The notes beneath the pieces were generated by a model. That model saw only the letters and a list, made by a program, of their open reading frames with translations, made no database searches and had not been told where the DNA came from. From a virus, in the IMG/VR virus record IMGVR_UViG_3300024518_000876, positions 26,955 to 90,954 of that record: a DNA stretch of 64,000 nucleotides; one strand, given 5' to 3'. This document shows positions 11,191 through 11,343 of this stretch, piece after piece. The position numbers were made by a program, and so were the translations under genes. Position 1 is the first letter of the stretch; every line of letters begins with the position of its first letter.

Positions 11191-11201
11191 GGATAAGGTT
11201 A

Positions 11202-11322
11202 TGTGTATATGCTGGACTTGAACCAGCACAATGGTACTCTCACCACTAGTCACTTTCACTTCAGAAGTGTTCCTTGGTATTCCAATTCCTCTACGCTATA
11301 AATAGCTTCTATCAATATACAC
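11202..11322 (-). ncRNA. tRNA-like RNA: acceptor-like stem plus T-arm with about 85 nt of non-tRNA interior
   Basis: GUGUAUAU/AUAUACAC stem stacked on GCUGG-UUCAAGU-CCAGC T-arm; outer GAUAAGG/CCUUAUC stem (11333-11327 with 11198-11192). Confidence 0.6.
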
Positions 11323-11343
11323 TTTCCCTTATCTTTATTTTAG

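Follow-up and report, generated by a model that had tools for sequence, protein, structure and literature searches.

Phage T4 encodes an RNA named RNAC (species 1 RNA, rnaC), the function of which is still unknown (PMC3014915, PMC9697503). In plant mitochondria, noncanonical folds resembling transfer RNA (tRNA), called t-elements, direct cleavage by RNase P and RNase Z, and when excised can remain as stable RNAs and acquire CCA-type additions (PMC1920247). Escherichia coli tRNA-Leu devoid of its anticodon and variable arms is still charged, and charging is lost upon an A73C change or disruption of the contacts that the D-loop makes with the T-loop (PMC9976931). Here we analysed an element located on the minus strand (11322-11202) of a 64,000-nt stretch of viral DNA, referred to below as the window, which covers positions 26,955 to 90,954 of the IMG/VR record IMGVR_UViG_3300024518_000876. 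The element descends from a class-II tRNA-Leu gene, and on balance it is probably an RNA gene remodelled from this ancestor into a non-decoding tRNA 'shell'.

The element proper comprises 121 nt, of which 87 nt lie between the 5' strand of the acceptor and the T-arm, and a further stem encloses it within 11333-11192. Read 5' to 3' on the minus strand, its parts are as follows (R3 is a model of the class of shells described below):

11327..11333, minus strand: 5' strand of the outer stem, GAUAAGG, pairing with CCUUAUC over 7 bp
11326-11323, minus strand: GAAA side of a 4x4 internal loop separating the outer stem from the acceptor
11315..11322, minus strand: 5' strand of the acceptor stem, GUGUAUAU, 8 bp with one U-A pair beyond a normal tRNA; aligned as acceptor by R3
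11313..11314, minus strand: U8-G9 linker (UG), as in tRNA-Leu genes, according to the R3 alignment
11292..11312, minus strand: 21-nt insertion or decayed first D-arm, with a hairpin GCUA-UUUA-UAGC or, alternatively, AUA-GAAGCUAUU-UAU at the canonical D position
11274..11291, minus strand: Leu-type D-loop segment GAG-GAAUUGGAAUA-CCA, with A14, A15, G18, G19, A20a and A21 kept and the stem decayed to 1-2 pairs
11251..11269, minus strand: hairpin in the position of the anticodon arm, in which CACUU can pair with one or the other of two copies of AAGUG, leaving a 3-nt or a 9-nt loop
11230..11247, minus strand: long variable arm AGUGGU-GAGAGU-ACCAUU, aligned as such by the tRNA-Sec model
11229-11228, minus strand: G and U48 following the variable arm
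11211..11227, minus strand: T-arm GCUGG-UUCAAGU-CCAGC, with G53-C61 and a consensus T-loop
11202..11210, minus strand: 3' strand of the acceptor stem, AUAUACAC (11210-11203), and discriminator A73 (11202); CCA is not encoded
11192..11198, minus strand: 3' strand of the outer stem, CCUUAUC, after UAA of the internal loop (11201-11199)

The acceptor directly abuts the T-arm, forming a stack of 8+5 bp (13 bp in total), and the T-arm motif is correct only when read on the minus strand. The stems are real, far beyond chance. The fold of 11333-11192 has a minimum free energy (MFE) z-score of -3.65, and a repeat search independently recovered the nested closing helix as 19-nt arms, complementary at 16/19 positions, with a 104-nt core between them. 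A T-arm with G53-C61 and an abutting 7-bp acceptor matched exactly twice in the 103.5-kb genome, at the element and at its immediate neighbour, versus 0.2 matches in shuffled sequences. The chance expectation of the 8-nt acceptor complement is 0.006 in the search span, and a perfect flanking 7-bp stem was found at a frequency of 0.86% around random 121-nt segments. A census of long-span top halves against shuffles was confounded by real tRNA arrays and was not used as evidence. The sequence-only reading of this locus had proposed an 8-bp acceptor stem stacked on a T-arm and an outer 7-bp stem; both were confirmed, the former as 11322-11315 paired with 11210-11203 next to the T-arm at 11227-11211, and the latter as 11333-11327 paired with 11198-11192 beyond the 4x4 internal loop.

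The same reading regarded the interior as foreign and without a D-arm, and in this respect it was wrong. What lies in the interior is the degenerate body of a class-II tRNA-Leu, consisting of a D-loop core, a hairpin and a variable arm; positions 11291-11274 form a Leu-type D-loop, and the canonical D position is occupied by a hairpin that has decayed. This body carries a 21-nt insertion, and the claim of a foreign interior is therefore only partly true. The segment GAG-GAAUUGGAAUA-CCA is similar to the D-arm found in tRNA-Leu of the same clade, GUG-GAAUUGGUAGA-CAC in the genome G001, and the D-loop of the element matches those of tRNA-Leu from G001 and L150 and of the G007 shell. The Leu D-loop core GGAATTGGNANA occurs only once in 207 kb (both strands), inside the element, with 0.0004-0.0008 occurrences expected in 85 nt, while GGAATTGG has two occurrences in 207 kb of both strands. 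In a set of 179 phage tRNAs, GAATTGG was found in the D region of 6 of the 23 tRNA-Leu and of none of the 156 others, a comparison made post hoc: the motif was noticed first and its Leu specificity was tested afterwards.

The order of the parts (U8-G9, D-loop, hairpin, long variable arm, U48, T-arm, A73) is that of a class-II tRNA-Leu. Fifteen non-anticodon positions are invariant in 13 phage tRNA-Leu genes, and the element keeps 14 of them, namely G1, U8, A15, G19, A21, U48, G53, U54, U55, C56, A58, position 60, C61, and A73; among these genes T8 and A73 are invariant and G9 is conserved in at least 90%. A model built from the 13 genes (R2) scored the element at 14.3 bits (E ~0.007) in an alignment that includes the D-arm, against 7.5 bits for the best match elsewhere; the contribution of the D-arm to this score is only ~4 bits, because the T-arm alone gives ~10 bits. 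Compared with class-II tRNA-Leu (RF00005 and R2), the element shares the invariant positions, the long variable arm, the UUCAAGU T-loop and A73, but lacks a canonical D-stem, a 5-bp/7-nt anticodon arm and a Leu anticodon, is 121 nt long instead of 82-87 nt, and falls below every tRNA threshold. It departs from tRNA-Leu in the extra U-A pair of the acceptor, the 21 nt after G9, a D-stem of 1-2 pairs, and the hairpin with a 3-nt or 9-nt loop that takes the place of the anticodon arm. According to the R3 alignment, the 21-nt insertion may represent a first, decayed D-arm, AUA-GAAGCUAUU-UAU.

Shells of this kind form a widespread class, to which the element appears to belong. IMG/VR was scanned for the Leu D-loop core followed, after 52-80 nt, by the T-arm, the interval in canonical tRNA-Leu being ~44 nt. 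The scan gave at least 116 matches; 80 loci were examined among the matches listed, and 67 of these 80 contain a complete shell, 94-121 nt in length. A shell is made up of a perfect 7-bp acceptor, UG, the D-arm GCG-GAAUUGGUAGA-CGC, an interior of 50-80 nt, a T-arm and A73. The interiors do not align and carry no anticodon arm, and ARAGORN rejects nearly all shells. In 50 non-redundant shells all seven acceptor pairs vary on both sides, with a covariation score of 0.66 versus ~0.09 for slid controls; because a paired acceptor was one of the criteria for selecting them, it is the pass rate of 67/80 that constitutes the real signal. No description of Leu-frame shells was found in the literature or in Rfam.

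Two shells were found in marine crAss-like relatives belonging to the clade of the phage studied here, a 102-nt one in G025 (G025:C1:14650-14751, L295; 49.9 bits with R3) and a 109-nt one in G007 (G007:C1:48657-48765, L296; 48.1 bits). Both are rejected by ARAGORN, with or without introns. The D-loop of the G007 shell, GAAAUGGAAUA, is identical to that of the element at 10/11 positions, and in the G025 shell a 7-bp hairpin with the 9-nt loop AGUAAUUAA replaces the anticodon arm. The element resembles the shells in having an acceptor abutting a 5-bp T-arm, U8-G9, U48 and A73, in its 50-80-nt interior devoid of an anticodon arm, in its overall length (94-121 nt in the shells), and in its rejection by ARAGORN. 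It also has the Leu D-loop core GGAAUUGG-A-A, which is present once, at 11289-11278, and is unique in the genome. However, in the shells the D-arm GCG-GAAUUGGUAGA-CGC is paired and directly follows G9, while in the element it lies 21 nt further on and has a decayed stem; moreover, the acceptor of the element has 8 pairs, and the interiors of the shells do not align with its own (z ~0). In the 7-kb region containing the element, the element was the top match of the shell model (R3, alignment A4), with 25.0 bits (E ~1e-5). Altogether, the element appears to be a divergent orphan variant of a widespread and apparently undescribed class, for which the G025 and G007 shells would be better models.

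Published analogues were limited to T4 RNAC, the only one found in the literature. RNAC, the sequence of which was checked, is a stable RNA of 139 nt (NC_000866 70908-71046, minus strand). Like the element, it is phage-encoded in a cluster of tRNA type, has a perfect T-arm (CCGGG-UUCGAAU-CCCGG) right after a long hairpin, and its 3' strand abutting the T-arm pairs with the 5' end, enclosing a non-tRNA interior of ~105 nt. Both RNAs match the tRNA-Sec family of Rfam weakly (17.5 bits for RNAC and 17.4 for the element), and RNAC has no Rfam family of its own. On the other hand, there is no detectable sequence homology between them, the closing stem of RNAC has only 5/7 pairs with two U-U mismatches, and RNAC lacks the Leu-type D-loop core and lies beside eight genuine tRNAs, whereas the phage carrying the element has none. 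The likeness is one of architecture only. Plant-mitochondrial t-elements, which are embedded in longer transcripts, share with the element a noncanonical fold with an acceptor stem and a T-arm (GGTTCRANYCC in t-elements; PMC1920247), but they are organellar and unrelated in sequence, and their processing has been demonstrated, while that of the element is inferred.

Among tRNA mimics, tRNA-Sec has a comparable stack of 8+5 bp (or 9+4 bp) and a long variable arm; the element lacks the UCA anticodon and its score is far from the threshold of 47 bits. The tRNA-like domain of transfer-messenger RNA (tmRNA) also keeps the acceptor/T half, but base pair 3-70 of the element is G3-C70 rather than G3-U70, so it has no tmRNA/Ala identity, and the phage has no SmpB. 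The bacterial Y-RNA-like YrlA is another mimic keeping this half; its long closing stem emerges at the position of the anticodon arm, whereas the outer stem of the element extends the acceptor, the phage has no TROVE protein, and no Rfam match was obtained.

The element does not qualify as a canonical tRNA. An acceptor abutting a 5-bp T-stem with a consensus loop is present, while the D-stem and the anticodon arm do not conform, a canonical 5-bp stem with a 7-nt anticodon loop being absent from the hairpin at 11251..11269. ARAGORN at the default threshold, with or without introns, detected zero tRNAs in the whole genome. Rfam reported no match at gathering thresholds, and for the tRNA family (RF00005, curated threshold 29 bits) there was no match on the 166-nt region even at E<=10. 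The best Rfam match, to tRNA-Sec (RF01852), covers the variable arm, T-arm and 3' strand only, and besides this weak match none was obtained for the element in the tmRNA clan. The core of the earlier view holds, namely that the RNA has the shape of a tRNA, preserves the acceptor/T half and is unable to decode, and the conventional intron-containing tRNA that the sequence-only reading had named as its refutation was not found by intron-aware ARAGORN at the default threshold.

One could nevertheless consider the element an aberrant decoding tRNA, with a UUCUGAA loop closed by CAC/GUG (anticodon CUG), or a tRNA from which insertions are spliced out. The loop fits the Y-U-NNN-R-N form of anticodon loops, ARAGORN with a relaxed threshold forces a mismatched 'tRNA-Phe(gaa) with a 32-nt intron' on the element, and insertion-bearing phage tRNAs do exist in G009 and L147. 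However, the stem would be only 3 bp long, and in the MFE fold the loop narrows to 3 nt; ARAGORN -i at the default threshold rejects the element and calls the positive controls (the 115-nt insertion-bearing tRNA of G009 and four genes of the unrelated contig L147); there is no Rfam tRNA match; an acceptor/T stack of 13 bp departs from the standard; the motif of a hairpin plus CAGCA, typical of the insertion-bearing tRNAs, is missing; and a tRNA combining Leu identity with a Gln anticodon would miscode. We therefore regard decoding as very improbable.

The insertion-bearing tRNAs themselves, 113-123 nt in length, are located in L147:9570-10314 (minus strand; IMGVR_UViG_3300010354_000079) and L100:4858-4972 (G009 28857-28971). 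They have canonical acceptor, D- and T-arms, score 35-46 bits with the Rfam tRNA model, and contain near positions 30-35 an insertion of 24-52 nt, in which a hairpin precedes the shared motif (A)CAGCA(A/G). This type of insertion is common to an unrelated phage (L147) and a crAss-like relative (G009), and looks like a distinct class of short phage tRNA insertions. In L147 these tRNAs alternate with repeat units closed by AAGATGAG...CTCATCTT (9845-9960 and ~10090-10175, minus strand), which start with GGCAGC, have a T-arm set apart from the closing stem, and do not match Rfam.

Homologues of the element were not found. A covariance model of the whole element (R1) gave no match in 26 IMG/VR records of related phages, including 7 with a completeness of at least 90%, nor in 17 metagenome loci or five tmRNA neighbourhoods of relatives; the covariance search that the sequence-only reading had proposed for its homologues was thus negative in the related phage records. 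Exact patterns of the T-arm plus acceptor had no match in IMG/VR, and the exact 3' part of the element was absent from ~185,000 species genomes. The 19-nt T-arm alone is generic, being found in tRNAs for Met, Ile, Asn, Leu, Val and Lys. Synteny anchors (the 187-aa, 239-aa and DNA polymerase proteins) yielded no usable relatives, and the sole match of a BLAST search against cultured phages was a tRNA-Pro, and to the neighbouring element. Kinship with an 85-nt element of G004 was also considered and rejected, the similarity being not significant (p ~0.08) and the G004 element being a degenerate tRNA-Arg relative. The element is therefore an orphan, absent from relatives and single-copy in its genome.

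These negative searches weigh against a remodelled RNA gene, and several other observations do so too. No covariation support is available for this particular element, because no homologue was found. Its score with R3 is far under those of true shells and tRNA-Leu (48-56 bits) and is not specific to Leu, since the tRNA-Pro-like neighbour and the tRNA-like domain of tmRNA obtain 23.2 and 18.5 bits, respectively. The 87-nt interior taken alone is no more stable than shuffled sequence (z = -0.81). The CACUU/AAGUG and UGGU/ACCA hairpins that the sequence-only reading had seen there do exist, but they are for this reason without statistical weight. The D-stem is decayed, the insertion may stop the D-loop from docking on the T-loop, the element sits in a fast-changing accessory block, and scans for sigma-70 and Bacteroidota promoters were uninformative, with no promoter identified.

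Many of these points would also be expected of a dying tRNA-Leu or Leu-shell pseudogene in an accessory region of fast turnover, functionless and with helices that have not yet decayed. Such an explanation accommodates the orphan status, the decayed D-stem, the insertion, the aberrant anticodon hairpin and the shuffle-like interior, as well as the expansion and variability of the region relative to G003 and the frequent gain and loss of tRNAs, relatives having 0-3 each. It accounts less well for the 20/20 Watson-Crick pairs, without a mismatch, of the outer, acceptor and T helices in a genome of 30% G+C, and for the additional acceptor U-A pair, which is compensated on both strands. The survival of 14/15 invariant Leu positions while the stems flanking the D-loop decayed fits selection on the elbow and the acceptor end rather than neutral decay. 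In addition, the anticodon arm of the neighbouring tRNA-Pro-like element is sealed rather than randomly degraded, a feature common to its counterpart in G005. A pseudogene is in our opinion unlikely, though it deserves to be taken seriously.

An element acting at the DNA level, such as a repeat resembling a miniature inverted-repeat transposable element (MITE), an attachment site with a tRNA 3' fragment, or a hairpin at a cassette boundary, would be consistent with the 19-nt nested inverted repeats around the 104-nt core. Such an origin is hardly credible: the element is single-copy and absent from relatives, a target-site duplication was not found, the T-loop is correct only on the transcribed strand, and an attachment fragment would provide neither the 5' acceptor strand nor the D-loop, while the 3' part of the element occurs in no host genome among the ~185,000 species genomes. 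A MITE or attachment site was accordingly rejected as a candidate on the basis of the single copy. Other candidates that were tried and rejected are a tRNA-His-like G-1:C73 numbering, which fits the spacing of the 3' flank but is contradicted by the long variable arm; a group I intron, for which the interior is too short and no Rfam match was obtained; a retron RNA, reverse transcriptase being absent nearby; and a small open reading frame (ORF) within the element, nothing credible being found.

The source of the window is a complete 103.5-kb IMG/VR virus with a G+C content of 30.5%. It encodes a crAss-type terminase, portal and major capsid protein, and its DNA polymerase I is ~32% identical to homologues from gut crAss-like phages; the phage is a marine crAss-like one, and signal peptides suggest Flavobacteriia as the host. 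The flanking genes are all on the minus strand, co-oriented with the element, and no terminator was found between it and the co-oriented neighbouring units. Its gap is the longest ORF-free one in the genome (825 nt), and comparison with G003 shows that the block around it is an expanded accessory region. The five longest gaps of the 103.5-kb genome (without an ORF of at least 60 aa) all lie within window positions 9796-15949 and measure 606, 825, 793, 477 and 562 nt. A motif (A)TTA-TTAAYCWTTAAAAC-A, followed 7-10 nt further on by ATG, is present in four copies on the minus strand (window 11538, 13237, 13648 and 13765), restricted to the accessory block (11.5-13.8 kb), and each copy precedes a small ORF; the motif probably represents a promoter or leader module that has been duplicated. 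The copy at 11538 stands before a micro-ORF of 21 codons (11514-11449), which lies within the stem-closed unit C, just upstream of both tRNA-like elements. Neither of the flanking units, C (11425-11522) and D (10970-11190), shows significant structure (z = -1.4 and 0.0, respectively).

Two further tRNA-shaped genes are located close to the element. One of them is listed here:

11344..11419, minus strand: tRNA-Pro-like element, ~10 nt upstream of the outer stem and on the same strand

In this neighbour the 17-nt anticodon arm is re-paired into a hairpin capped by GUGA. The other is a full tmRNA 2 kb downstream of the element, and the three carry the only G+C-rich T-arms with G53-C61 in the genome. 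The phage has no canonical tRNA, but three tRNA-shaped non-decoders clustered within 2.5 kb. The loop GAGAGU of the element's variable arm (11241-11236) has a complement, ACUCUC (11350-11345), in the neighbour's acceptor 3' strand, a match of 6 nt that could be due to chance.

Related arrangements were observed in G005. The tRNA-Pro-like neighbour and its G005 counterpart (L099:16927-17000) share a 4-nt linker between the acceptor and the D-arm, an ACAGG/CCUGU T-stem and a closed anticodon arm, which has 6 bp and a GUGA loop in the window versus 8 bp and a 5-nt loop in G005. In G005 an extra T-arm plus acceptor strand ~200 nt downstream pairs upstream of the tRNA-like unit, the whole spanning 322 nt. 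A 57-nt segment of the same genome (L099:8458-8514, G005 23457-23513) matches only the two ends of the tmRNA model (23.8 bits) and represents a tRNA-like domain without the mRNA part; a full tmRNA is absent from G005.

The clustering of non-decoders brings up the possibility that the element is a decoy or sponge, i.e. a processed, CCA-tailed and possibly leucylated top half that titrates a host factor reading the acceptor/T half of tRNAs or their 3' end, for example tRNA-end-modifying defence toxins, LeuRS (leucyl-tRNA synthetase), EF-Tu or L/F-transferase. All tRNA-shaped genes of this phage (the tmRNA, the Pro-like neighbour and the element) being non-decoding and lying within 2.5 kb would fit such a role, as would the retention of LeuRS identity elements and the location in an accessory-gene region, presumably a typical home of counter-defence genes. 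However, neither a partner nor a target was found, genes for SmpB, a CCA-adding enzyme, RtcB and a Ro/TROVE protein are all missing from the phage, relatives do not conserve the element, and the idea is purely conjectural. We consider a decoy quite improbable.

For a non-decoding shell remodelled from tRNA-Leu, the following route of maturation is the most likely. The element would be co-transcribed with the flanking minus-strand genes and excised by host RNase P and RNase Z, both of which require only the acceptor/T half; completion by the CCA-adding enzyme would then give a stable RNA of ~121 nt, and the same cuts could also separate the neighbouring RNAs. None of the genuine tRNAs and tmRNAs of the clade (in G000, G001, G003, G004, G009, G013 and G014) encodes CCA, their 3' flank having the form of acceptor, N73, C and (T/A)AA; an unencoded CCA is therefore normal in this clade, and RNase Z-type trimming followed by CCA addition is the expected route. 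Nucleotides -1 to -4 and +1 to +4 are within the internal loop and so should be accessible. The parts relevant to the elbow and LeuRS are retained, namely the coaxial acceptor/T helix, U8-G9, A14, A15, G18, G19, A20a, A21, U48, the T-loop and A73. Since the anticodon goes unread by bacterial LeuRS, the identity elements of which are retained, the element may be leucylated while being unable to decode. Conversely, the 13-bp stack and the outer stem between leader and trailer could impair RNase P, LeuRS or CCA addition. The processed carrier suggested in the sequence-only reading is plausible by analogy.

Going further, one could hypothesise that the element and the wider class of shells are a natural tRNA scaffold, matured and leucylated by the host and kept off the ribosome by the 13-bp stack and the missing anticodon arm, which would display a cargo or divert, sense or block a factor acting at tRNA 3' ends. 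We consider this possibility doubtful; if true, it would imply a charged, non-decoding RNA with variable cargo in a nuclease-resistant frame.

Phage annotation usually relies on tRNA finders, which discard anything without an anticodon arm. The element, an RNA derived from tRNA-Leu that keeps the parts read by processing enzymes and LeuRS, illustrates what is lost in this way; T4 RNAC, the sole published counterpart found, has been without a known function for about fifty years. Being an orphan and partly decayed, the element is better taken as a pointer to the class of Leu-frame shells than as a model member. Should these RNAs undergo maturation and charging, they would represent a new phage use of the host tRNA machinery without decoding, as well as a precedent in nature for the 'tRNA scaffold' used in engineering.

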